DNA of 64,000 bases from an uncultured Thermoleophilia bacterium (GTDB taxonomy: Bacteria > Actinomycetota > Thermoleophilia > RBG-16-64-13), in contig CAVVNF010000014.1 of NCBI GenBank assembly GCA_963749535.1, forward strand, positions 112,878 to 176,877. The letters are read 5' to 3'. Each line of letters opens with the position of its first letter. Within the stretch, counting starts at the first letter, position 1. The position numbers and the translations under genes were made by a program. Shown here piece by piece: positions 34,791 to 51,345 of this stretch. The notes under the pieces are model-generated. The model did not search any database, had not been told where the DNA came from, and saw nothing but the letters and a program-made list of their open reading frames with translations.

Positions 34791-35513
34791 ATGTCTCCCG
34801 ACCCTTCCCGCATTCTCGACAAGCTATCAATCGTCACGCCGCTTATCGGTTTGTACGATGCGCCGGACCCCCGTCCGTTCGGTCCGCTGGTCGAACCGGG
34901 AGCCAGACAGTGCGTCTTCGCCTCCCTCAAACGCTGGCAGGAAGGGAAGACCCTTCACCTGACCCGTGAGAAGCATGGCTGTGGTGCCGGCCACCTGCTA
35001 GGCGTCGATATGCGACCGCGCGAAGATATGGTTCGCTTTCTCTGTGACGAGGAGGGCCTGAGGGCGTCGCACGAACTGATGGACCTTTGGCTGGATGCCA
35101 CGGGCCACTACGAGCCTCGCCACGAGCACCTGCTCATCGGGCCGCTCCGCGAGGGCCAATACGAATACCTTCGCACGGTGACCTTCTATGTGAACGCCGA
35201 TCAATTGGCCTCCCTCTGCACTGGCGCCACGTACTACAGCAAGCCTTCCGACCCTCCTCCGATCATCGCTCCCTTCGGATCTGGCTGCATGCAACTCATA
35301 TCTCTGTTCGATGACCTGGACGTGCCGCAGGCCATGATCGGAGCGACCGACCAGGCCATGCGCAAGCACCTGGAGCCTTGGATGATGGCGTTCACCGTGA
35401 CCCGGCCCATGTTCGACCTGTTGTGCCGCTGGAGCGAAGACCCGCGCAGCTCGCTGCACACGGGCTTCTTCGAGAGTCTCCTCAAGTCGCGTGGAGGTTC
35501 CCTCGCTAGTTAG
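34791..35513 (+). CDS. DUF169-like protein (tentative)
   Basis: 240 aa with SD GGAGGGA. The pattern around QCVFASLKRW..KHGCGAGHLLG and PFGSGCMQL resembles DUF169 as I recall it. Not verified. Confidence 0.4.
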   Translation: MSPDPSRILDKLSIVTPLIGLYDAPDPRPFGPLVEPGARQCVFASLKRWQEGKTLHLTREKHGCGAGHLLGVDMRPREDMVRFLCDEEGLRASHELMDLWLDATGHYEPRHEHLLIGPLREGQYEYLRTVTFYVNADQLASLCTGATYYSKPSDPPPIIAPFGSGCMQLISLFDDLDVPQAMIGATDQAMRKHLEPWMMAFTVTRPMFDLLCRWSEDPRSSLHTGFFESLLKSRGGSLAS

Positions 35514-35606: not shown

Positions 35607-37370
35607 ATGACGTCGCTCCAGAATCTGGGCCGGGTTATCTCCGCCGATATCCTGGTAGTGGGAGGTGGGATCGGGGGGCTGGCGGCGGCGATCTCCGCTA
35701 AAGAATCGTGCCCTGAGGCGGATGTGCTCGTGGTTGAGAAGAATGTCAGCGGCTGGGCCGGTCTGGCGAACAAGGGACACGGTCATCTCTGGTTCTTGGC
35801 CCCCGAGGCTGATGCAGCGGCGTTTCTCGATTTTCACGTACGTCACATCGGCATGTTCCTTGAGGACCAGCAACTGCTTTCCGAATTCGCCAGGGAGAGC
35901 CACGAGACGCTCGAGCGCTTCGATGCTTGGGGCGCGGGACTATGCAGGGACAAGAACGGCAGTTTCTTCAAGGAGCCGATCAAACCCAGCCTTCCGTGGA
36001 GCATGACCGTCGCCGATCTGGACATGCTTATGCCGGTCTACAGACGCGCGATCCGGTTGGGCGTGCGATTCATCGACAAGACTGCGGTGGTCGATCTGCT
36101 GAAGGACGGCAGCGCGGTGACCGGGGCGGTCGGGTTCAGCGTGCTCGACGGCACCTGTCTCCTGCTTACGGCCCGGGCTACGGTCCTCGCCGCCGGCGGG
36201 CAGAGCTTCCGCATCCTGAATGGGTGGAGCTCACAGAGGGGCGACGGCATCGCCGCTGCGTATCGAGCGGGCGCCGAGATGAGAAGCGCGGAATTTGGTT
36301 CCTCCATCGAGTTCGTGGACAGCAGGAGCAAGCGTCCCGTGGACGGCGCCGAGGAGGCCCTGTACGACGCCACGGGTCAGCTGATCACTCCTCTGGCCGG
36401 CCGAGAGTCCGAGTCGGCGCTGGGGGTGCAGGACGCGGTGGCCTGGTACAGGGCGACTCTGGTGGGCAACGGACCCATCGTCACTCATCACGATGAGAAC
36501 CCGCTCATGTGCCAGGGCACGGGAGTGCAGGGCGAGGGTGGATCGACGTCGGGCGGCGGCAAGTTCACGCTAGGTGCGAGCGGCCCCATGCCGTGCGAAG
36601 CCGCATGCGAGCGGCCCCGTTTCGATGCTTATCGCGAGCGCCAGGCTCGCAAGGCGAGGGCGGTCGAGGGCGCGGGCCGGGTCGCGGAAGTGCTGCCGGG
36701 TATGGCCTCCGAGCTCTCCCCGGTCAAGGTGGATCATACGATGGCAACGACCGTTCCCGGACTCTTCGCTATCGGCAACACCTGTTACACGGGCTCTGCG
36801 ATCGTGGGAGCCGTTCCGGCTTCTCCGGGCCGCATGCACGGGAGTGGTTTGACCGGTGCCCTCTGGATGGGGATGAGGGCCGGCGTCTCGGCTGTAGCTT
36901 TCGCCCGGTCTGCGCCGGAGCCCACAACCGATTCGGACCACGTAGCCGTGCTGAAACATCGGGCCTTCGCGCCGCTGGACCGCGCCCAGGGAGTGACTCC
37001 ACTCCAGCTGGTGGAAGAGGTAAAGGCCACCATGAGCCCCATCGGCTACTCGGTGTTCAGAAGCCGTTGGCGTATGGAGGAGGCTTTGGCCAAAGTCCTT
37101 ACGGTGGGCGAGAAGATCGGCTCGCTGGTCGCTGGCGACCCCCATCATCTTGCTGCGTGCAATGAAGCGAGAAGCATGGTCCTATGCGCGGAGATGTTCT
37201 ACAGGTCCTCGCTCCAACGGAAGGAATCCCGGGGCTGGTTCGTGAGGGAAGACTATCCAGAGCGTGACGATCGCGAATGGCTCAAGTGGATCGTGCTGAA
37301 GGACGCGCACGGGGCGATGACCGTCGCAACGGAGCCCGTCCCTATCGAAGATTACCCGGTGAGGCCGTAA
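35607..37370 (+). CDS. FAD-binding SdhA/FrdA/AprA-like flavoprotein (paralog 1)
   Basis: N-terminal dinucleotide fold ADILVVGGGIGGLAAA. C-terminal RKESRGWFVREDYPERDD, typical of the succinate dehydrogenase/fumarate reductase/APS reductase flavoprotein family. Aligns end to end with 47659-49359. Confidence 0.8.
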   Translation: MTSLQNLGRVISADILVVGGGIGGLAAAISAKESCPEADVLVVEKNVSGWAGLANKGHGHLWFLAPEADAAAFLDFHVRHIGMFLEDQQLLSEFARESHETLERFDAWGAGLCRDKNGSFFKEPIKPSLPWSMTVADLDMLMPVYRRAIRLGVRFIDKTAVVDLLKDGSAVTGAVGFSVLDGTCLLLTARATVLAAGGQSFRILNGWSSQRGDGIAAAYRAGAEMRSAEFGSSIEFVDSRSKRPVDGAEEALYDATGQLITPLAGRESESALGVQDAVAWYRATLVGNGPIVTHHDENPLMCQGTGVQGEGGSTSGGGKFTLGASGPMPCEAACERPRFDAYRERQARKARAVEGAGRVAEVLPGMASELSPVKVDHTMATTVPGLFAIGNTCYTGSAIVGAVPASPGRMHGSGLTGALWMGMRAGVSAVAFARSAPEPTTDSDHVAVLKHRAFAPLDRAQGVTPLQLVEEVKATMSPIGYSVFRSRWRMEEALAKVLTVGEKIGSLVAGDPHHLAACNEARSMVLCAEMFYRSSLQRKESRGWFVREDYPERDDREWLKWIVLKDAHGAMTVATEPVPIEDYPVRP

Positions 37371-38714: not shown

Positions 38715-41292
38715 ATGCAAAAAGAAACAGTTCAAGAAGACGTATGGATAACGTCGGTCTGCTCCAACTGCTTTTCCTTCTGTCCCATAAAGGCCCATCG
38801 GGTCAATGGGGTGGTCACGAAGATCGAAGGCAATCCTGACGATCCGTTGACAAAGGGACGGATCTGCGCACGGGGCTTGAGCGGCATCAACATCCTTTAC
38901 GACCCAAACCGTCTCGACTACCCGGTAAAGCGGACCAACCCAGAGAAGGGCATCGGGATAGACCCCAAGTGGGAGCGCATCTCATGGGACGAGGCGCTGG
39001 ATACCATCACTGGGAAGCTCAAAGCCGTCCGCGACGACGACCCGCGCAAGTTCATCGCCAGTTTTGGGGTGAACGGTGGCGCGCAGTCCTACACGTTGGA
39101 AGCGTTCGCCGTGGCGTTTGGGACGCCGAACCTCTTCGTGGGCGGTGCCGGAAACCACTGCGCGAGCGGCAAACACTTCATCGGCGGTCTCACGCACGCG
39201 GCGTGGGTGTGTCAGCCCGACTTCAACTACTGCAACTACTTCCTCAACTTCGGCGTACCGGTGGGCACCGGGGCATACTACGGGGTGAACACCACGGTCC
39301 GGAAGATGGCCGAAGCGCGCGCCCGCGGAATGAAGCACGTCGTGCTCGACCCTTGGAAGGGCATGCCGGCACAGAGCGCGGACGAATGGGTGCCCATCCG
39401 ACCGGGAACCGACGCCGCGGTGGCTCTGGCTATGGCCAACCTCCTCCTGAACGAGTACGGCATATTCGACCGGGAGTACTTGGAGCACGACACGAACGCG
39501 CCCTACCTCGTCAAGGAGGACGGCCGCTACTTCCGTGGCGCCGACGACAAGCCACAGATGTGGGACGCAGCCGACGGCATGGCCAAGCCGTACGACGCTA
39601 AGTTCGGCCACATTGCCCTCGACGTGGACGAGACCATCGGCGGCCAGCGGGTTCGGACCGCTTTCAGCCTCATCAAGGACCACGTCAAGAGCTACACGCC
39701 GGAGATGGCAGCCGAGATCAGCGGCATACCGGCCGATACCATCCGGCGGCTCGCCCGCGAGATCGGGGATGCCGCGCGCATCGGCGAGACCATCGAGTTG
39801 GAGGGCCGCACGCTTCCCTTCCGCCCGGTGGCGATCTCCTACTTCAAGGGCGCCCAGGCGCACAAGCACTCGTCACAGACCAGCATGGCGCTCGAACTGC
39901 TCAGCGCCGTTCTCGGTGTCCGTTCGGTGCCAGGAAGCTATGTGGGGATCAACGCCCGCTCGGTGGGCCGTCCGGACACGGGGTACCCGAAGTGGTCGCC
40001 GTACGAAGGCCCCGATGGCCTCCTCGTGACGGGCCGCTGGGTGGTGCCGCCGTCGCAGCCTTGGCCTCCGGTCTACCCGAAGAAGCCTACGGACCTCGGC
40101 CTGGCCCAGCTCATCCCCCCATCTCACGGCAACACGCCGATGCTCCCCCTCGTCGCGCAAGACCCGGCGAAGTACGGCATCGACTACAAGCCCGAAGTCC
40201 ACATCATGGTGTCCACGAACTTCGCGCATGAGCCTGTCCGATCCGGACGTGGTGCAGGAGTTCTTCAAGGACATCTTCACCGTCAACATCAACATCTTCC
40301 TCGATGAGTCGGCCGAACTGTCGGATATCGTGCTGCCGGACACCAGCTACCTGGAGCGCCTGGACATCAACGCCGACTGGATGGCCAACGGGTGTGCCAC
40401 CGACTACTGGTCGTATCCGCTTCGCCAGCCTGTGGTGGAGCCGATCCACGAGCGCCGGCAGGCCACCGCCGTCTTCCTCGAACTCGCCGACCGGCTGGGT
40501 ATGCGCGCCGACCTGAACGCGGTCACCAACGTGTCGTTCTCGTTCCGCGAGCCACATCTGCTCGAGGGCGATACCAAATACACCGTGGAAGATCTTACCG
40601 ATCGCCGTTACAAATCTTGGTTCGGGGATCAGTACGGCTTGGACTATATGAGGGAACACGGGATCATCGCGTGGCCGAAGAAGGCCGAAGAGATGTATTG
40701 GGATCCGTACGTAAAATCTCGCATCCCCGTCTACTTCGAGCACTTCCTGACTTTCAAGGAGACTCTGCAGGATATCCAGAAGGAGACCGGCCTGTACGAG
40801 TACTTGGATCTGGAAGACTATCAGCCGATGCCGGACTGGCGGCCGTGCCCATCTCACACCGAGACGCGGCCCGAGTTCGACATGACCGCTACCTACTTCC
40901 GGCTGCCCTTCCAGTCATTCACGATGACGGGTGACAACGGGTGGCTGGACGAGGTGTCGAGCATCGACTCATACGCGAACGCCATCAATATCAACGCGGA
41001 GACCGCCGGCAAGAAAGGCATCGCCACCGGCGACTGGGTGGAGTTGGAATCGGCGGCCAACGGCCAGACCGTGCGTGGGAAGGCCAGACTCACCGAGGCG
41101 CTGCATCCTGACGTCGTGATGGTCTCGGGTCATGGCGGCCACTGGGCGAAAGGTCTGCCCCTGGCAAGCAAGCCGGGCAAAGGCATCAACTTCAACCGCC
41201 TGCTCAAGCAGGACTTCGAGCACATGGACACCCTTTCCTTGAACCTCGACCTGTGTGTGAAGGTCAAGGTCACCAAGGTGACGGGGCCGTGA
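38715..41292 (+). CDS. molybdopterin (bis-MGD) oxidoreductase catalytic subunit A2; one apparent frameshift near 40230
   Basis: FS0 motif CSNCFSFC..RICARG and no RR signal. Motifs: ISWDEALD, GNHCASGKHF, RPGTDAAVALA, C-terminal barrel GDWVELESAANGQTVRGKARL. ORF 38715-40307 joins ORF 40228-41292. Confidence 0.85.
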
Positions 41293-43190: not shown

Positions 43191-43805
43191 TTGACGGCGA
43201 AAGATGCGGCCCCCAAGCGCATGACAGGGGCGGAGCGAAAGAAGCAGATCGTCATGGTCACCTTAGACCTTGTGGCCAAACATGGGGTCCAGGGCACCAC
43301 CACCGCGCGCATCGCGTATGCCGCGGGAGTCTCGGAGAAGACCCTCTACAAGCACTTCGCGAGCAGGAGAGACCTGCTGGTTGCGGCCTTGGACGTGGCT
43401 TTCGACCGCGCCAATCATGCCGTCGTCTCCCGCCGGGAGACAGGCGCCTTGGAGCGTCTTCGCTCGATAGGGCGCTCTCACTGGGCGACGGTCCTTTCCG
43501 AGGAAGACGGGTTCATCTATCCGCTGTTCGAGTTCGTCGCCGCTCCTCCAGAAGCGGGTCTGAGAGACCGTCTGAGGGTCAGGCAGCTGGCCAGCATCCA
43601 CGCGTTAGCCGCTATTGTCGAGGACGGTAAGACTCAACGCGAGATCCGCCCAGACACTGATTCCGAGCAGATCGCGTGGGAGCTGATGGGTGTCTACATG
43701 TCCGAGGACATCTCTTTTCTCATGGGCGTGGAGGAGTTCGCGACTGCCGGGCGCTCGGCGACGATGCTGGAGCGCATCCTTCGAGACATCTCCGTCGACG
43801 TCTGA
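43191..43805 (+). CDS. TetR/AcrR family regulator (paralog 2)
   Basis: HTH GVQGTTTARIAYAAGVSEKTLYKHF. TTG start in the ORF track; an alternative ATG exists at 43221. Confidence 0.85.
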   Translation: MTAKDAAPKRMTGAERKKQIVMVTLDLVAKHGVQGTTTARIAYAAGVSEKTLYKHFASRRDLLVAALDVAFDRANHAVVSRRETGALERLRSIGRSHWATVLSEEDGFIYPLFEFVAAPPEAGLRDRLRVRQLASIHALAAIVEDGKTQREIRPDTDSEQIAWELMGVYMSEDISFLMGVEEFATAGRSATMLERILRDISVDV

Positions 43806-44067: not shown

Positions 44068-45531
44068 ATGTCCGAGAAGCCAAAAGAAACTTCCCAAGAG
44101 GGCGGGGAAACCGGTCTCCTGCAGGGCAAACAAGTCAGTCGCCGCGAATTTATGAAGCTCGCGGGTATAGCAGGTGCCGCGGTCGGGATGGGCGCCGGCC
44201 TTGGCGGTCTGGTGGCTGCCTGCGGCGGCACCACCACTACGACGACCACCGCCCCGGCCTCCACTACCAGCACCAGCGTCGCTGCCAGCACGACCACCGT
44301 CACGGCTGCCCCGGAAACCGGGGCTGAGATAAAGATCGGTTTCATAACGCCCAAAACCGGCGGATTGGCGTCGTTCGGCGTGCCTGACGGCTATACCGTC
44401 GACCGGGTGACCGCATGGATCGGGGACGGCCAGGTGCTGGGGGATAGCAAGAAGCACCCGATCACGATAAGCGTGCAGGACAGCCAGTCCGACACCGCTC
44501 GGGTCGGGCAGGTGGCGGGTACCCTCATCGGTGACGGCATCGACATCATGTGCGTCGCTTCCGGGCCAGACACCGTGAACCCGACTGCCGCCCAGTGCGA
44601 GGCGAACGGGGTGCCCATGGTGGCGACCGACGACCCGTGGGAGGCCTTCATCGGTAGCGCTCCCACCGGGGGAGTGTTCAAGTGGTGCTACCTCTACTTC
44701 TTCGGGGTGGAGGACATCGTGGCCGACTACGTGAGCGTATGGAGCGCGATCTCGACCAACAAGGTCATGGGCGCGATGTGGCCGAACGACGCCGATGGCG
44801 CGGCCTTCTCTGACCCGAAAACGGGTTTCCCGCCGGTCATCACTGGGGCCGGGTTCAAGCTGATCGACGCGGGGCGTTGGCAAGATGGCACCGAGGACTT
44901 CACGGCTGAGATCTCCAAGTTCAAGTCCGCGGGCTGTGAGGTGCTTTCGGGTGTGTTCAACCCGCCCGATTTCACGAACTTCTGGAAGCAGTGCAAGCAA
45001 CAGGGGTGGAGCCCGAAAATCGCTACGATCGACAAGGCCATCCTCTTCCCACAGTCCATCGAGGCCCTGGGTCCCCCTCCGATAGGTATCGGCCTCATCA
45101 GCGGCGACTGGTGGGATCCGAAGCGTCCGTGGAAGTCGTATCTCACCGGCGACACATGCCAGCAGTGGGCGGACGACTACTCGACCAAAACAGGTCAGCA
45201 ATGGACTCAGCCTTTGATGCATGTAGTGACCTTTGAGATGGCCATCTGGGCGCTGCAGCACGCGACCGATCCCACGAGCAAAGACGCGATCCTGGCGGCT
45301 ATCAAGCAGATGAAGTTCACGAGCATCGGGGGCGACATGGACTTCAGCGCTCCGGTGCCCGCGACGACCACGGTGGGGCAGAACCACGTTCATCCCAACG
45401 TCTACAAGTCGCCCGCCTGCGCCGGGCAGTGGGTTAAAGGGACCACGAACCAATACGACTACGTGGTGGTCAACAACACGGCTGCTCCCATGGTCTCGGT
45501 GGAGGCCCAGCAGATTGCGGTACCGGCCTGA
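44068..45531 (+). CDS. ABC-type solute-binding lipoprotein with Tat signal (paralog of 30519-32006); orphan
   Basis: SRREFMK, lipobox LVAAC, poly-Thr linker, KIGFITPKTGGLASFG. Aligns along its length with the first SBP. Confidence 0.8.
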   Translation: MSEKPKETSQEGGETGLLQGKQVSRREFMKLAGIAGAAVGMGAGLGGLVAACGGTTTTTTTAPASTTSTSVAASTTTVTAAPETGAEIKIGFITPKTGGLASFGVPDGYTVDRVTAWIGDGQVLGDSKKHPITISVQDSQSDTARVGQVAGTLIGDGIDIMCVASGPDTVNPTAAQCEANGVPMVATDDPWEAFIGSAPTGGVFKWCYLYFFGVEDIVADYVSVWSAISTNKVMGAMWPNDADGAAFSDPKTGFPPVITGAGFKLIDAGRWQDGTEDFTAEISKFKSAGCEVLSGVFNPPDFTNFWKQCKQQGWSPKIATIDKAILFPQSIEALGPPPIGIGLISGDWWDPKRPWKSYLTGDTCQQWADDYSTKTGQQWTQPLMHVVTFEMAIWALQHATDPTSKDAILAAIKQMKFTSIGGDMDFSAPVPATTTVGQNHVHPNVYKSPACAGQWVKGTTNQYDYVVVNNTAAPMVSVEAQQIAVPA

Positions 45532-45569: not shown

Positions 45570-45607
45570 GGCCGCAACCCGCGCGAGCGCGGGTTGCGGC
45601 CCTTTTT
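45570..45607 (+). terminator. Rho-independent terminator after SBP2
   Basis: GGCCGCAACCCGCG-cgag-CGCGGGTTGCGGCC (14-bp perfect stem) followed by CTTTTT. Confidence 0.8.
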
Positions 45608-45666: not shown

Positions 45667-47391
45667 ATGTACACGAAGACTCTCAAGCCGGAGATCATGG
45701 CCACCATCCTCTCCGAGGATTTTCCGGCGGAGAAACTTTCCCAGCCGAGCTTCAAGATGGTGGTGGACAAAGACGTGATGGTCACCATGCGCGACGGCAC
45801 GCGGGTGGCCGTCGATGTCTATCGGCCGGATGCTCCCGGCAGATTCCCCGCTCTCTATGCCAGCTCGCCTTTTCAGAAGGATCTCGTGCATCTCCCTCAA
45901 TGGCCTGCCTTCCACTTTCGTGAGACGAATGACATGGAGTGGTTCGTATCGCGCGGCTATGCGTACGTCAGTCACGACATCCGGGGCACGGGTAAGTCTA
46001 TTGAGGGCCAGTACCAGTTCTTCAGTCAAGAAGAGCAGAACGACTTCTACGATGTGATCGAGTGGATCGCCACGATGCCCTGGTGCAACGGCAACATCGG
46101 CATGATCGGAGAGTCCTACTACGGCTGGACCCAGTGGTTCGCCGCGGCTACTCAGCCGCCGCATCTCAAGTGCATCGCCCCGTTCGACGGGGGCGCGGAC
46201 ATGTATCGGGACATCAACTATCACGGCGGCATCCTGGCCGTGGGTTTTCCCGCCATCTGGTACACGTCGGAGATGCGCGGTAACCATTTCCTGGGGCCCA
46301 ACCCGCCCGCCTCACCCGACCTGTGCCGGTGGGACATGCCCTGGGAAGTGATCCACCATCCGACGCTCGACGAGTTCTGGAAGGTCCGTGTGCCGGATCT
46401 GACGAAGATCCTATGCCCCGTCTTCAGTATCGGGATCCTCCACAAGACGGGCACGCACCTCCGCGGCAACGTGCGCGGCTACGAGGAAGTCGATGTGCCG
46501 AAGAAGTTCATGCTCTGCCACGGGGATTTCGAGGGCGACGAGATGGCCATCTTCAACTCTCCCGAGCTTCGTCAGCTGCTTCTACGCTGGTACGATCACT
46601 GGCTGAAGGGGAACGACACCGGATTCATGGAAGAAGACCCGGTGCGCGTGTTCGTCCGCGGCGCGGAGACGTACCGCCCCGAGAAGGAATGGCCGCTGGC
46701 CCGGACGGACTATCGCAAGCTCTACCTGAAGGCGGGCCCCAGCGGTGCGGTGGAGTCGTTGAACGACGGCATACTTACGTGGGAGCAGCCCGTTGTCGGC
46801 GACAGCTCCACCACCTACAGCTATCCCGACCCCGACTGGTCTCACTTCTCGGGTTGCGGCACGGCAGTGATGGAAGACGGGATCCTTCACCCCACGAAGA
46901 AGATCCTCACCTTTACGTCCGCTCCACTCAATGAAGACGTCGAGGTCATCGGGAGTCCGGTGCTCGTCGTGTTCGCGGCCACCGATCAGACGGACACGGA
47001 CTTCCACGTGCGTATCTGGGACCAGCATCCGGACGCCGATCAGGTGCCGGGCATGCCGCCGAAGGGACGCCTGCTAACCCACGGTCGTCTCAAGGCCTCG
47101 CACGCGTGTACCAAGGACGACGGGCTGAGCAGGCCGCACCGTCCCTACTACCGCCACGATGTTCCCCAGCCGATCGAGCCCGGCGCCGTGAACAAGTATG
47201 AAGTCGAGATCTGGGCCACCTCCTGTCGTTTCAAGGCCGGTCACCGCATCCGCATCGACCTCGCCTGCTACGATTCGAATGCTCTCGACTTCGGCGGTCA
47301 CTTCCTGAGCCTGAGAGTGGGCAAGGACACCATCTACCATGAGCGGGATCACGGCTCGTACCTCATGCTGCCGGTGATCCCAGCGAGTTAA
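45667..47391 (+). CDS. CocE/NonD family (S15 X-Pro dipeptidyl-peptidase-like) alpha/beta hydrolase 1
   Basis: Motifs: MRDGTRVAVDVYRP, GYAYVSHDIRGTGKS, nucleophile elbow GMIGESYYG. C-terminal jelly-roll domain (GHRIRIDLACYD). Intact 574 aa. Confidence 0.85.
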   Translation: MYTKTLKPEIMATILSEDFPAEKLSQPSFKMVVDKDVMVTMRDGTRVAVDVYRPDAPGRFPALYASSPFQKDLVHLPQWPAFHFRETNDMEWFVSRGYAYVSHDIRGTGKSIEGQYQFFSQEEQNDFYDVIEWIATMPWCNGNIGMIGESYYGWTQWFAAATQPPHLKCIAPFDGGADMYRDINYHGGILAVGFPAIWYTSEMRGNHFLGPNPPASPDLCRWDMPWEVIHHPTLDEFWKVRVPDLTKILCPVFSIGILHKTGTHLRGNVRGYEEVDVPKKFMLCHGDFEGDEMAIFNSPELRQLLLRWYDHWLKGNDTGFMEEDPVRVFVRGAETYRPEKEWPLARTDYRKLYLKAGPSGAVESLNDGILTWEQPVVGDSSTTYSYPDPDWSHFSGCGTAVMEDGILHPTKKILTFTSAPLNEDVEVIGSPVLVVFAATDQTDTDFHVRIWDQHPDADQVPGMPPKGRLLTHGRLKASHACTKDDGLSRPHRPYYRHDVPQPIEPGAVNKYEVEIWATSCRFKAGHRIRIDLACYDSNALDFGGHFLSLRVGKDTIYHERDHGSYLMLPVIPAS

Positions 47392-47398
47392 GGGCGCC

Positions 47399-47641
47399 AT
47401 GAACGACATCAGGATAGATTTCGACGTGTGCAACGGGTGCAAGACCTGTTACAAGGCCTGCTTCGTGGATGTCTTCCGCTGGAACGACGAGCAGAAGAAG
47501 CCGGTGGTGGCTTACCCGGAGGACTGCGTGGGTTGCAACATGTGCGAGATCAACTGCCCGGAAGACTGCCTGGAAGTGGTCATCGATTGGGACGCGTACT
47601 TTCCGCCTCTCATCGAGCGAGACTTCCCGTACCACGTCTAG
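47399..47641 (+). CDS. 2x[4Fe-4S] ferredoxin
   Basis: 80 aa with CNGCKTCYKAC and CVGCNMCEINCP. Starts 8 nt after the hydrolase stop and ends 17 nt before the flavoprotein start. Confidence 0.8.
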   Translation: MNDIRIDFDVCNGCKTCYKACFVDVFRWNDEQKKPVVAYPEDCVGCNMCEINCPEDCLEVVIDWDAYFPPLIERDFPYHV

Positions 47642-47658
47642 GATAGAAGGAGCTGAAC

Positions 47659-49359
47659 TTGACCGGTCTGAGGCAGCTGGGAAGGGTGCTTTCTACGGAC
47701 ATCCTCATCATCGGGGGAGGTCTCGGAGGCATGACGGCCGCGATCTCCGCGAAAGAAGCCTCCCCGGACGTGGATGTCCTCATCGTCGAGAAGAACACGA
47801 GCGGCTGGGCGGGCCAGGCCAACAAGGGTCACGGGCACTTCGGGTACCTCGATCACGAGAACAGCCCCGATGAGTTCGTCGAATTCCACGTGCGAAACAT
47901 AGGTATCTTCCTGGAAGACCAGGAGATGCTTGCCGAGTCCGCCAGGGAGAGCCGCGCGACCGTGGAGCGCTTCGACGGATGGGGTGGATCGTTGTGCAGG
48001 GACGGTGAAGGCGGTTTCGCCCACGTGCCTTTCAAGCCGGGCATGCCCTGGAGCATGGCGGCGGCCGATCTGACCTTGCTTCTTCCCTTACATCGGCGGG
48101 CGAAGAAACTCGGCGTGAAGTTCCTAGACAAGGTCGTCATCGTGGATCTTCTCAAGGACGCCGACCGGGTCGTCGGCGGCATCGGCTTCAGCGCGCTCGA
48201 CGGTACGTGCCACATCGTCAAAGCCAAGGCGACCATCATCGCCACTGGCGGTCAGGGGTTCCGGATCCTGGGCCTTTGGAGCTGCATGCGTGGCGACGGC
48301 GCGGCGGCGGCGTACCGCGCCGGCGCCGAGATGAGGTCCGCAGAATTCGGCCCGTATCTGCAATTCGCCAACAAGCGCAGCAAACTGCCGATAATGGGAG
48401 CCCAAGAGGCTCTCTATAACGCCAAGGGAGAGAATATCTCCAAGCGCTTCGTGGTCGAGGGAGAACCGGACATCTCGCCCATGGCGGCCGTTGTCTGGTA
48501 CGAGGAGATGAAAGCGGGCAACGGGCCGATCTACACGCGCCACGCCGAGAACTCCTTCCTGCAGAACGCGGCCATGGTGGGGGAACGCGCCATCTGGAAG
48601 CGGCCGTTCCACGACCGATTCCACGACAGGATGAAGGTGAAGGCTGCGTCCGTGGACGGACGCGGCGAGCTTGCCGAGGTGTTCCCGGGCTGCGTGGGCG
48701 AGCTTTCGCCCATACGGGTCGATAGGTGCATGGCCACGAGCCTTCCCGGGCTCTACGCGATAGGAGCGGCGAGCTACAGCGGATCCGCCATGGTTGGCGC
48801 GGTTCCCGCCCCGCCTGGACGTTGGCACGGAAGTGGGCTGTTCGGTACCACGTGGATGGGGATGCGGGTAGGGCCGCATGCCGCCGCGTACGCGGCGGCA
48901 GCGTCCGAAGCCCAGGTAGACGCTGCGCAGGCCGAGGCGCTCAAGGAACGGTTCTCCGCACCCAGCCGGCGGGTGGCCGGGCTGCATCCCATGGAACTGG
49001 TCAAGGCTGTTCAGGCGGCGTTCAATCCGATCGGCTATTCGGTGTACAAGAGTCAGGAACGCATGGAAGAGGCGCTGGGAATGATCCACGCGGTCAAGGA
49101 GAAGCTGGGCCGACTGTCTGCGACCGATCCCCATCACCTGGTGGCGTGCAACGAAGTAGCGAGCATGGTCTTGAGCGCGGAGCTCTTCTATCGGGCGTCG
49201 CTCGAGCGCAAGGAATCGAGGGGATGGCATTTGCGCGAAGACTATCCCGAGCGCGACGACAGCAACTGGTTGAAATGGATCATCCTCAAGGACACGAACG
49301 GCGAGATGGCGCTGTCCACCGAGGACGTACCCCTGGAGAGATATACCGTCAAACCATAG
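47659..49359 (+). CDS. FAD-binding SdhA/FrdA/AprA-like flavoprotein (paralog 2)
   Basis: TTG start after GAAGGAG. Motifs: TDILIIGGGLGGMTAA and RKESRGWHLREDYPERDD. Collinear with 35607-37370. Confidence 0.8.
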   Translation: MTGLRQLGRVLSTDILIIGGGLGGMTAAISAKEASPDVDVLIVEKNTSGWAGQANKGHGHFGYLDHENSPDEFVEFHVRNIGIFLEDQEMLAESARESRATVERFDGWGGSLCRDGEGGFAHVPFKPGMPWSMAAADLTLLLPLHRRAKKLGVKFLDKVVIVDLLKDADRVVGGIGFSALDGTCHIVKAKATIIATGGQGFRILGLWSCMRGDGAAAAYRAGAEMRSAEFGPYLQFANKRSKLPIMGAQEALYNAKGENISKRFVVEGEPDISPMAAVVWYEEMKAGNGPIYTRHAENSFLQNAAMVGERAIWKRPFHDRFHDRMKVKAASVDGRGELAEVFPGCVGELSPIRVDRCMATSLPGLYAIGAASYSGSAMVGAVPAPPGRWHGSGLFGTTWMGMRVGPHAAAYAAAASEAQVDAAQAEALKERFSAPSRRVAGLHPMELVKAVQAAFNPIGYSVYKSQERMEEALGMIHAVKEKLGRLSATDPHHLVACNEVASMVLSAELFYRASLERKESRGWHLREDYPERDDSNWLKWIILKDTNGEMALSTEDVPLERYTVKP

Positions 49360-49388
49360 GACCGGGCAAGCGGAGATCAGGAGGCGCC

Positions 49389-51148
49389 ATGAGTGCGGAA
49401 GAAGCCACCTACACGATGATCCAGGAATTCGACCACATGGTCCCCATGCGGGACGGTGTCAGGTTGGCTACGGACGTCTTTCGACCGGATGCTCCGGGCA
49501 AGTTCCCGGTTCTCTATACCTGCGCCGTGCACAACAAAGACCTCCAGCGCCCTGAGGTCGCAGAGGTCATCCCGCCGCAGCCGTCGTACTCGCCGCTTTG
49601 GTACGGAGTCATCGAGAGCGGTGACACCAAGTTCTTCGTAGCCAACGGCTACGTTCACGTCCATTGCCAGCTGCGCGGTGTCGCGAAGTCTGAGGGCAAT
49701 TACAGCGAGGACAAGACCGATCATTACGACATGATCGAGTGGATCACCAAGCAGCCGTGGTGCGATGGCAACGTGGGCATGGTGGGGATCTCGGCCTTCG
49801 GCGGCGAGCAGTTCCGCGCGGCCCTTCAGGGTCACCCGGCGCTCAAGGCCATTTTCCCGTACGATCCCATGGGCGCCTACGGTGGGATGTGGAGCTTCAG
49901 GGAGTTCAATCCCGGCGGCGTCATCCACACCATGATGTACTACCTGTACCCGCTGGGCACCGTCCACGAGCCGTGCGGCGCGCCCGGACCACTGTCTCCG
50001 GAGGAAGAGGAGAAGTGGCAGTGGGCCATCAACAATCGCGACTACAAGATGTACGCGCATCTGTGGAGCATCCTCACCCAGCGCGGCCAGAGGAACGGCG
50101 GCATGTACGAGATCCTCGTCGATCCGTACGACGACCCGAAGGCGCTGGCGGAGAGCGAAGAGAACTTCAAGCAGATAAGGATCCCCTTCTACACCGGATC
50201 GGGGCAGTACTCGTACTCGTACAAGCTCCATTGGCAGGGTATGCAGCACTGGTTCCAGAACGTGCAGGGCGTGCCGAAGAAGATGATCATCAACGACCCC
50301 TCGCACATGGAGCGCCCGTTCTGGGAGATGCACGGGGAGATCCTCCGCTGGTACGACTACTGGCTGAAGGGCAAGGAAACCGGCATCTTGGACGACCCGC
50401 CGGTGAAATACTGGGTGATGGGCGAGAACGTCTACCGCACCGCCGAAGACTGGCCCATCCCCGGCACTCAGTGGACCAAGTATTACCTGGACACCTGGGA
50501 GCGGCTCAAGACCACGCCCACGCCACCGGCAAGCCAGAGTCAGTCCGTGGACAAGGAACCGGACGCTTTCGTGCAGATGCCGCCCACCAAGACCATGAAG
50601 ATAGAGCGGCTCCGCTACATGACGCCCCCGCTGGCGAAAGACACACTCGTCGCGGGTCCCATCTCGCTCACGCTCTACGCTGAGATCGACCAGGAAGACA
50701 CTAACTGGATCGTTATCCTGAAGGACGTGGGGCCGGACGTGTCGGTGCGCACGCAGCGGGAAGGCGAACGGCTCGTGCCCCGAAGACTCTGCCGGAGCGC
50801 GAGCTGACACGGGGCTGGCTGAAAGCGTCGCACCGGGCCGTCGACGAGTCACGGTCGAAGCCCTGGGCGCCCTGGCACCCGTTGACCAAGGAGGCCCAAC
50901 AGCCGGTGGTGCCCGGCGAGATCAACGAGTACAAGATCGAAGTCTTGTCGACGGCGAACATGTTCAAAGCCGGACACCGGATCTGTCTCGACATCACGTG
51001 CCTGGACCTGGCCACCGGCACCGGCGGTCTGACGAACATCGAGTACTTCGCTCCCCACATATGCAGCAGCAAGACCACACTCCACAAGGTCCATCACAAC
51101 GCGGAATACCCGTCGCACTTGCTGCTACCGATCATCCCGCTGGACTGA
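49389..51148 (+). CDS. CocE/NonD family alpha/beta hydrolase 2; one apparent frameshift near 50780
   Basis: ATG 49389 follows AGGAGG. Motifs: MRDGVRLATDVFRP, nucleophile elbow GMVGISAFG. The C-terminal domain continues in ORF 50882-51148 (GHRICLDITCLD). Confidence 0.8.
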
Positions 51149-51186
51149 ACAGCGGTCGATCGAGCAGGTATGTCCTCCTGTATTTC

Positions 51187-51229
51187 GTGGGGCCCGGCCC
51201 AGGCCGGGCCCCACGGCGCGACGCCGTGG
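51187..51229 (+). terminator. Two overlapping GC hairpins after the hydrolase operon
   Basis: GTGGGGCCCGGCC/GGCCGGGCCCCAC at 51187-51214, and CCACGGCG-cga-CGCCGTGG at 51211-51229. No downstream T tract. Confidence 0.45.
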
Positions 51230-51345
51230 GAGGCCTCCGCTCCTTTGGCCATGTGTTACCCTCGGTGGCGGGGTGAGCGCATCGACCAGGCTTGAGATCA
51301 GGGCCTGAAATCGCCCTCATCGGGGGCAGGAGTTGGACGGTTTGC

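Follow-up and report, generated by a model that had tools for sequence, protein, structure and literature searches.

A ferredoxin-flavoprotein gene pair joined to CocE/NonD hydrolase genes in a Thermoleophilia genome: a likely variant of a widespread candidate system of anaerobic polyphenol catabolism

The 64,000-nucleotide stretch of contig CAVVNF010000014.1 that we analyzed (the window; G+C content of about 63%) comes from an uncultured Thermoleophilia bacterium and carries four co-directional genes with spacings of 7, 17 and 29 nt. They encode a CocE/NonD serine hydrolase (Hyd1), a small ferredoxin (Fd), a flavoprotein (Flav) of the SdhA/FrdA/AprA superfamily, which binds flavin adenine dinucleotide (FAD), and a second CocE/NonD hydrolase (Hyd2) (Table 1). 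This operon is likely a minority variant of a widespread and unpublished ferredoxin-flavoprotein-hydrolase system of anaerobic polyphenol catabolism. The best overall explanation, to which we assign a probability of about 0.5, is a cytoplasmic catabolic operon in which an Fd-Flav oxidoreductase and the CocE/NonD hydrolases would act on a polyphenol-derived compound. The genome of the window, an assembly of 41 contigs, is 84% complete, and the window lies on its contig C14; in what follows, C numbers denote contigs of this genome and L numbers the loci compared.

The loci were taken from genomes and from 80 metagenome contigs, and 52 family genes were analyzed. Among the 46 loci with room for an upstream ferredoxin gene, 44 have a small ferredoxin gene directly upstream of the Flav homolog and on the same strand. 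Since this arrangement is so constant, the Fd-Flav pair, and not the hydrolase triad, appears to be the conserved unit, which is consistent with a two-subunit enzyme. The hydrolase-ferredoxin-flavoprotein triad of the original prediction does recur in L001, L022, L039 and L060, so that this part of the proposal was borne out, while the unit under conservation turned out to be smaller. The eight Cys of Fd form two CxxCxxCxxxC motifs, in agreement with the 80-residue ferredoxin first proposed, and between the two cluster motifs there is a subfamily signature, RW...P..aYpEdC, conserved in 47 copies. Its sequence resembles PsaC and generic ferredoxins, and with this result the possibility that Fd is specifically AprB-like was discarded. 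The Flav family comprises at least 120 protein clusters with 47-93% identity, which bear only generic names (succinate dehydrogenase/fumarate reductase flavoprotein, FAD-dependent oxidoreductase); the ESM Atlas also returned generic names only. A search for longer, fused versions of Flav (992 aa and above) gave no match, which is weak evidence. In the phylogenetic tree, the Fd-Flav in-group was separated with an SH-aLRT of 100 from relatives with a downstream ferredoxin gene, used as outgroup, and the pair of the window was placed inside the family clade. These distant flavoprotein relatives (25-32% identical; L057-L063 and L076-L099), in which the ferredoxin gene lies directly downstream, form a separate unnamed family.

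The neighbors of the pair were identified by de novo clustering followed by tblastn. The commonest one is a protein with the PF18089 "DAPG hydrolase PhlG" domain, of the family of phloretin hydrolase; PhlG-fold hydrolases are zinc enzymes. A gene of this type is found within 1 kb and on the same strand in 20 of the 27 loci with good flanks, a CocE/NonD gene takes its place in 2/27, and no locus has both together. Furthermore, 10 of these 27 loci also have phloroglucinol-pathway homologs of the SDR, 3HCDH (3-hydroxyacyl-CoA-dehydrogenase-like), cyclase and BKACE families, the four enzyme types characterized in the phloroglucinol cluster of Clostridium scatologenes (PMC10470551). The guess that a phenolic compound is the substrate thus fits the gene neighborhoods of the family, with the reservation that the usual partner is a PhlG-type C-C hydrolase and the CocE/NonD form a minority. 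For the anaerobic formation of phloroglucinol, the published routes rely on the gut-bacterial enzymes FLR, CHI, Fcr and Phy (PMC10470551, PMC13515148), and a 2026 review of the route names these four only. The phloroglucinol-pathway paper mentions phloretin hydrolase in some clusters and no flavoprotein (PMC10470551), and the enzyme that splits alphitonin is still hypothetical, the step being unassigned (PMC11170127). Our literature searches found no paper on PhlG-Fd-Flav modules or on the CocE/NonD form, and none combining "phloretin hydrolase" with "fumarate reductase"; phloretin hydrolase, ferredoxin and flavoprotein together matched one irrelevant review only.

The phylogeny of Flav suggests how the operon of the window came to have different hydrolases. 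PhlG adjacency is spread over all the deep branches of the tree (26 labelled rows). The window Flav falls in a clade of ten rows (SH-aLRT of 97), made up of Flav, L001, L022, L023-L026, L002, C4 and Flav2, a paralog encoded in the window. In five of these (L023, L024, L026, L002 and C4) the order is Fd-Flav-PhlG, and 32-168 nt separate Flav from the PhlG gene; the sequence of L025 stops 86 nt beyond Flav and is not scorable for hydrolase type. In the window, L001 and L022, a Hyd2-type CocE/NonD gene is located 29-48 nt downstream of Flav. L022 has a Flav only 53% identical and a Hyd2-type gene 58% identical and 48 nt downstream. On these comparisons, the three loci read as a non-homologous replacement of the PhlG partner by a CocE/NonD hydrolase. 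The window itself has no PhlG-type gene beside Flav or Flav2, and the nearest one on C14 is at 74729-75523, outside the window.

Compared with the PhlG-Fd-Flav modules (L002, L016-L020, L023-L054, C4 and C7), the operon has orthologous Fd and Flav (36-60% identical, one clade with an SH-aLRT of 100), with Fd directly upstream and a hydrolase gene directly adjoining the pair on the same strand. It differs in that the modules have the PF18089 hydrolase whereas the window has two flanking CocE/NonD serine alpha/beta-hydrolases, and in that no phloroglucinol-pathway genes are found immediately within it. Both kinds of arrangement exist in the same organism, as Fd-Flav-PhlG is present on C4 and C7. 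In addition, C26 (192647-196575) carries a complete cluster of phloroglucinol-pathway homologs (BKACE, SDR, 3HCDH-like and cyclase-family), whose genes share 52-65% identity with their counterparts next to Fd-Flav at other loci.

With regard to the identity of Flav, its C-terminal motif ESRGWHLREDYPERDD was confirmed, and the domains and motif present support the original description of a protein with the FAD fold and the C-terminal signature of SdhA, FrdA and AprA. All the scores with curated NCBIfam models are far below the cut-offs, as expected from the claim that it lies outside characterized families. The best match was PRK08275 with 191 bits (cut-off 587); the others were 152 bits with sdhA_frdA TIGR01812 (cut-off 567), 122 with TIGR01176 (933), 90.7 with aprA TIGR02061 (641.75), 126 with NF005331 (557) and 100 with nadB TIGR00551 (453). 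The TcuA model NF006130 was not among the best 25 NCBIfam matches of Flav, and Flav2 scores 30 with it (cut-off 369); a KstD model was likewise not among the best 25 listed, no search having been aimed at KstD. The closest solved structures by sequence are the alpha subunit of 3'-phosphoadenosine 5'-phosphosulfate (PAPS) reductase (8a8o, E 1.4e-22), AprA (1jnr) and FrdA/SdhA, all near an E-value of 1e-22. An AlphaFold2 model of Flav (pLDDT of 85) was compared by Foldseek and gave TM scores of 0.76-0.83 to PAPS reductase, FrdA and AprA, with about 22% identity and an about equal fit.

In FrdA, His44 carries the covalent 8-alpha-N3-histidyl FAD, and His232, Arg287, His355 and Arg390 are dicarboxylate-binding or catalytic residues. 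The profile alignment (3p4p, 7d6v) places Gly52, Leu234, Met246 and Val346 of Flav at the positions of His44, His232, Arg287 and His355, respectively. Only Arg390 is kept, as Arg388 of Flav, which is family-invariant, as is Gly52; hence the conservation of the substrate-binding Arg and His residues of fumarate reductases, proposed as a check, was not observed beyond this residue. Since the covalent-FAD His and three of the four fumarate-site residues are replaced and the scores are low, Flav is, judged by its sequence, a member of the superfamily with a different active site and belongs to no characterized family. A role as FrdA/SdhA was rejected on these grounds (low scores, no covalent-FAD His, three of the four fumarate-site residues replaced) and by the lack of an FrdB/SdhB-type partner. 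NadB and TcuA were also discarded, their curated scores being far below the cut-offs. As to AprA, the residues that we take to bind adenosine 5'-phosphosulfate (APS) are Asn74, Arg265, His398 and others; Asn74 sits in an AprA-specific insertion, and the middle of AprA was left unaligned with Flav. The genomic partners of AprA are, besides sat, qmo and dsr. In the 84% complete genome there was no AprA match above the cut-off and ATP sulfurylase (PF01747) was not found, qmo and dsr not having been searched for. Flav as an AprA was rejected, with scores far below the cut-offs and no ATP sulfurylase found in the genome; the likeness to AprBA noticed at first, in a stretch without sulfur-metabolism genes, is architectural only.

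Hyd1 and Hyd2 belong, as indicated by their model scores, to the CocE/NonD family TIGR00976, and both have the Peptidase_S15 and PepX_C domains of Pfam. For Hyd1, the family score, the two domains and the GESYYG elbow leave the assignment to the cocaine-esterase/X-Pro-peptidase family as it was first made. Its nearest solved structures are 3ib3 (E 5e-46) and cocaine esterase (E 1e-41), and the Ser of GESYYG aligns with CocE Ser117. With CocE (1ju3) and 3ib3, Hyd1 and Hyd2 have in common the TIGR00976 family, the Ser nucleophile elbow and the PepX_C beta-domain; the identity is about 30% or below over the aligned parts, and CocE Tyr44 is replaced in both.

The second hydrolase had been presented as a gene closing the operon. 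A CocE/NonD gene with a GISAFG elbow does follow Flav by 29 nt, but in this assembly its reading frame is interrupted: reading from 49389 leads to a stop at 50807, and the conserved C-terminus resumes in another frame at 50783-51148. In comparison by blastn with L001 and L003, two contigs of a related Thermoleophilia metagenome-assembled genome (MAG), the extra bases are in GTGCCCCGAAGACTCTGCC, nine bases apart, and the Hyd2 frame is uninterrupted across this site in both. Contigs of the peat and permafrost runs X1, X2 and X3, which are from different studies, lack a single base at each of the positions 50782 and 50787. Because the contigs of two relatives and of three runs are without the extra bases, the frameshift is probably an assembly error; a strain-specific pseudogene is less likely. 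This genome has other split genes, for example those for the Flav paralogs of C4 and C7, for several solute-binding proteins (SBP) and for the molybdoenzyme at 38715-41292, and L001 also shows local frame errors. The molybdoenzyme is a molybdopterin oxidoreductase large subunit that appears as two overlapping frames (38715-40307 and 40228-41292), a split that is probably another indel error or pseudogene in the assembly. A smaller difference concerns the TTG start of Flav, which is GTG in related-strain contigs from three of four runs.

The coordinates and gaps of the four tightly spaced genes are as originally proposed, and the gene order is the same in L001, with a DNA identity of 88% over 11.3 kb. 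The genes had also been said to follow a TetR2-SBP2 unit. Both of these genes do lie upstream, but a strong terminator-like hairpin intervenes, with the ribosome-binding site of Hyd1 (GGAGGGA) downstream of it. Since this hairpin stands between SBP2 and Hyd1, Hyd1-Fd-Flav-Hyd2 is probably a transcription unit of its own, separate from TetR2-SBP2. A sigma-70 scan did not find a promoter before Hyd1. A contig from a metatranscriptome library (run X19, record 12) bridges the end of Hyd1, Fd and the start of Flav; DNA carry-over in the library is possible. Downstream of Hyd2, the fold of 51149-51260 has an energy of -62.1 kcal/mol (z = -3.7), and the terminator scan gave no call for the hairpin contained in it. 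A search of Rfam with window positions 30000-56000 gave no match. A TetR2 ortholog (85% identical) holds the same position in L003, and SBPs of the SBP2 type are also found near Fd-Flav in L001, L002, C31, L023 and L039.

Table 1. Features of the operon and its surroundings (window positions unless stated otherwise).
Feature	Position	Strand	Description and evidence
DUF169 gene preceding Flav2	34791..35513	+	PF02596, 57 bits
Flav2	35607..37370	+	587 aa; paralog of Flav without its own ferredoxin gene; 57% identical to Flav
TetR2	43191..43805	+	Regulator; TetR_N 46 bits, TetR_C_13; tie to the operon positional only
SBP2	44068..45531	+	LivJ-type (Peripla_BP_6) solute-binding protein; Peripla_BP_6 119 bits; weak Tat-signal match
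Intrinsic-terminator-like hairpin, SBP2/Hyd1 gap	45570..45601	+	14 pairs, 12 of them G-C, then T-run CTTTTTGG
Hyd1	45667..47391	+	CocE/NonD serine hydrolase; 574 aa; signal peptide not evident; TIGR00976 312 bits (cut-off 66.3)
Fd	47399..47641	+	2x[4Fe-4S] ferredoxin; 80 aa; presumed electron-transfer subunit of Flav; Fer4 family matches
Flav	47659..49359	+	FAD flavoprotein, SdhA/FrdA/AprA superfamily; 566 aa; TTG start; FAD_binding_2, Succ_DH_flav_C
Hyd2, N-terminal part	49389..50781	+	CocE/NonD with GISAFG elbow, in frame up to the shift; TIGR00976 195 bits (cut-off 66.3)
Hyd2 frameshift site	50777..50790	+	Two extra window bases with respect to every relative examined
Hyd2, C-terminal part	50783..51148	+	Shifted frame; tblastn 94-98% identity to L001/L003, continuous with the N-terminal part
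G+C hairpin 3' of Hyd2	51187..51214	+	12 bp, without U-tract; may mark the operon end
L003 deletion junction	L003:7966-8144 = window 47388-49217		On a 96-kb contig of the related Thermoleophilia MAG

Another aspect to consider is the chemistry that the operon may carry out. Enzymes with the FAD_binding_2 domain usually introduce or remove unsaturation at the alpha,beta position of a carbonyl compound; fumarate reductase, urocanate reductase, KstD and Cgr2 are examples. Fd and Flav would form a two-subunit oxidoreductase with the layout of AprBA and PAPS reductase, in which Fd would dock on Flav and relay electrons to a non-covalent FAD, as AprB does to AprA. The FAD might then saturate a carbonyl-conjugated C=C bond in a compound derived from plant polyphenols, and Hyd1 and Hyd2 may hydrolyze an ester, lactone or acyl bond, either in this compound or in the product of its reduction. 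Neither sulfur nor fumarate chemistry would be expected of Fd-Flav. Candidate substrates are unsaturated lactones (coumarins), hydroxycinnamoyl esters and depsides, or acylphloroglucinols if the serine hydrolases do C-C cleavage. We regard this specific mechanism of ene-reduction plus hydrolysis as tentative, possible rather than probable. The original prediction had placed hydrolysis before the redox step; the evidence supports neither order. A precedent for reducing first and hydrolyzing afterwards is provided by the published gut pathway, in which Fcr is followed by Phy (PMC13515148). In Eubacterium ramulus, these two enzymes carry out a reductase step and then the hydrolytic release of a fragment from a flavonoid-type compound (PMC13515148, PMC10470551), the logic proposed here. 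They differ in that Fcr is NADH-dependent, of another family and without a homolog here, and in that Phy is of PhlG type as opposed to the CocE/NonD enzymes of the window. A wider generalization, which we consider rather doubtful, is that Fd-Flav plus hydrolase makes up a modular "reduce, then hydrolyze" unit of anaerobic polyphenol decay, in which the type of hydrolase would set the bond broken: the PhlG type would release phloroglucinol from C-acyl compounds, and the CocE/NonD type would extend the unit to ester- or lactone-linked peat phenolics (coumarins, depsides, hydroxycinnamoyl esters).

Several observations weigh against the explanation proposed. The operon encodes no electron donor for Fd. 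In the hydrolases, the nucleophile Ser is aligned in both and a candidate His is present, and the alignment did not locate the acid residue; CocE Tyr44 corresponds to Phe in Hyd1 and to His in Hyd2. Hyd2 is frameshifted in the present assembly, as mentioned before. Apart from the L022 gene, the CocE/NonD genes near Fd-Flav elsewhere are only 25-31% identical to Hyd1/Hyd2. In L039 and L060 they are unrelated genes located upstream of the pair, which is why the association of CocE/NonD with Fd-Flav is one at the level of the superfamily that arose at least twice. On C28, a Hyd2 paralog (65-73% identical) is part of an unrelated operon with genes for an iron-dependent alcohol dehydrogenase (Fe-ADH) and a LarA-like protein; therefore, Hyd2-type enzymes are not tied to Flav. 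L003 is a deletion allele that has lost Fd and most of Flav: the stop codon of Hyd1 is joined directly to what is left of Flav, its final ~48 codons, and Hyd2 is intact. The hydrolases can therefore exist without the redox pair. The full four-gene form is held by L001, a 13-kb contig of the same bin, so that either the population is polymorphic for the presence of the pair or the bin contains a mix of strains. Finally, the class of substrate, the direction of the reaction and the sequence of its two steps are guesses, and a part played by SBP2 or TetR2 is hypothetical as well. As regards electron donors in other loci, the gene that separates CocE/NonD from Fd-Flav in L039 (8689-9648) codes for a protein with a flavodoxin domain and a 4Fe-4S motif, which is a possible donor; further on, this locus has genes for a LivHMGF-type ABC transporter and an SBP.

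The deletion allele bears directly on the idea that the hydrolases and Fd-Flav are uncoupled and that the pair is a mobile two-gene cassette landed between esterase genes. This allele keeps both hydrolases without Fd-Flav, paralogs of Hyd1/Hyd2 exist without Flav on C1, C6 and C28, and most CocE/NonD neighbors in other loci are only distantly related. Nevertheless, the last 48 Flav codons kept in L003 indicate that the four-gene form is ancestral to that allele, the order Fd-Flav-Hyd2-type recurs in L022 with a Flav only 53% identical, and the CocE/NonD gene sits exactly in the PhlG slot, no locus having both. Together with the tight gaps and the RNA-library contig that joins Hyd1 to Flav, these data make an uncoupled cassette improbable. 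We judge just as improbable a Flav that works oxidatively within the same operon and complex, like KstD or TcuA, oxidizing the product released by the hydrolases and passing the electrons to Fd. Dehydrogenases such as SdhA, TcuA and NadB do exist in the superfamily (NCBIfam match list), the two hydrolases encoded on either side of the redox genes could provide its substrate, and on C28 a CocE/NonD pair flanks Fe-ADH and LarA-like enzymes that look like product processors. However, a 2x[4Fe-4S] ferredoxin of clostridial type is in general a poor acceptor for C-C desaturation at ~0 mV, and no quinone- or membrane-linked partner is present. Moreover, phloroglucinol and a saturated acid, the products expected for the PhlG-linked relatives from the published Phy reaction, need no desaturation (PMC13515148).

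Two further explanations look to us very improbable. One is an enzyme of the AprBA or PAPS reductase kind with a sulfur compound as its substrate, which might for instance release sulfite from a sulfated or sulfonated aromatic ester, the hydrolases being accessory esterases. The closest solved structures by sequence (8a8o and 1jnr, with the former at E 1.4e-22) and the ferredoxin-then-flavoprotein order, along with Gly at the FrdA His44 position, agree with it. Against it are the aprA models (91 and 126 bits with cut-offs of 642 and 557), the equally good fit of FrdA by fold, the location of AprA Asn74 in an insertion specific to AprA in the alignment with Flav, and the gene content: no AprA above the cut-off or ATP sulfurylase was found in the genome, and the neighbors in the family are PhlG and phloroglucinol genes, not sulfur genes. 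The other is a pathway of peptide or amino-acid catabolism, where S15-family Hyd1 and Hyd2 would free an amino acid and a NadB-like Flav would oxidize it anaerobically via ferredoxin. The Pfam names Peptidase_S15 and PepX_C, the presence of NadB in the same superfamily and the LivJ type of SBP2 are in its favor, but the Xaa-Pro dipeptidyl-peptidase models give 77 and 59 bits (cut-off 642) and nadB 100 (cut-off 453), the FrdA-aligned His and Arg residues, which NadB is generally known to share, are replaced in Flav, and the context of the family is polyphenol catabolism, not peptide breakdown.

The pair can also be compared with known systems. AprBA (1jnr, 2fja) and the PAPS reductase of Methanothermococcus thermolithotrophicus (8a8o) consist, as Fd-Flav, of a small 2x[4Fe-4S] protein and a flavoprotein encoded by two genes, have no His at the covalent-FAD position, superpose with a TM score of 0.76 and are the best PDB sequence matches of Flav. 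They differ in the identity of only about 22%, in that the scores of Flav are far below the aprA cut-offs, in the ferredoxin, which here is PsaC- or generic-like and not AprB, and in that no sulfur-metabolism genes were found in the window's genome. FrdA/SdhA (1kf6, 7d6v) gave the best superposition (TM of 0.82-0.83), and the ESRG...DYPERDD region and the Arg390 equivalent are kept in Flav; in contrast, His44, His232, Arg287 and His355 are replaced, and the operon is without FrdB-type or membrane-anchor genes.

Upstream in the window, the claim of a full-length Flav paralog directly after a DUF169 gene and without a ferredoxin was confirmed with Flav2. This protein keeps all the family-invariant residues and groups with Flav and L001 (SH-aLRT of 83). 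A ferredoxin search of C14 gave a sole match, at 47399, and none beside Flav2; by tblastn, none of the other family members in the loci retrieved had a DUF169 gene as a neighbor.

Elsewhere in the genome, relatives of these genes occur in other settings. On C28 (21373-30728; L108:5373-14728), the order is divergent TetR, SBP, CocE/NonD, Fe-ADH, EamA transporter, LarA-like and Hyd2-like CocE/NonD; it seems that this genome repeatedly places "processing" enzymes between two CocE/NonD genes. On C31 (1777-6890; L102), the genes after another Fd-Flav paralog encode an acylating acetaldehyde dehydrogenase and a HMGL/DmpG-like aldolase, and a PanB-family gene comes before it; the partner in this case is a C-C lyase and not a hydrolase. 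Three Hyd1 paralogs in tandem (64-69% identical) are located on C1 (14126-22100; L106) beside genes for CobW, a B12-binding corrinoid protein and a URO-D-family methyltransferase, a set that resembles a corrinoid-dependent (O-)demethylase system. A CocE/NonD paralog on C6 (14391-16097; L109:5413-7104) has Cys at the position of the nucleophile Ser (GICYFS, not GxSxxG).

Contigs related to the operon, mostly 90-99% identical, were found in peat, permafrost and wetland runs; this habitat evidence comes from runs X1, X2, X3 and X19 only, run word shares below 0.2 being disregarded. The carbon of peat and permafrost is stored partly since phenolics are thought to resist anoxic decay. The Fd-Flav family is abundant in metagenomes of sediment, wetland, peat and gut and is tied to phloroglucinol pathways, with no function reported. 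The window shows this redox pair re-partnered with serine hydrolases in peat Thermoleophilia, which offers a second, testable entry to the chemistry of the enzyme, and L001 and L003 are a natural pair of alleles with and without it for comparison. The operon points to an unstudied variant of oxygen-free breakdown of plant polyphenols; if the modular proposal were true, it would define an enzyme family not described before, together with a new branch of the pathways for carbon turnover in peat and permafrost.

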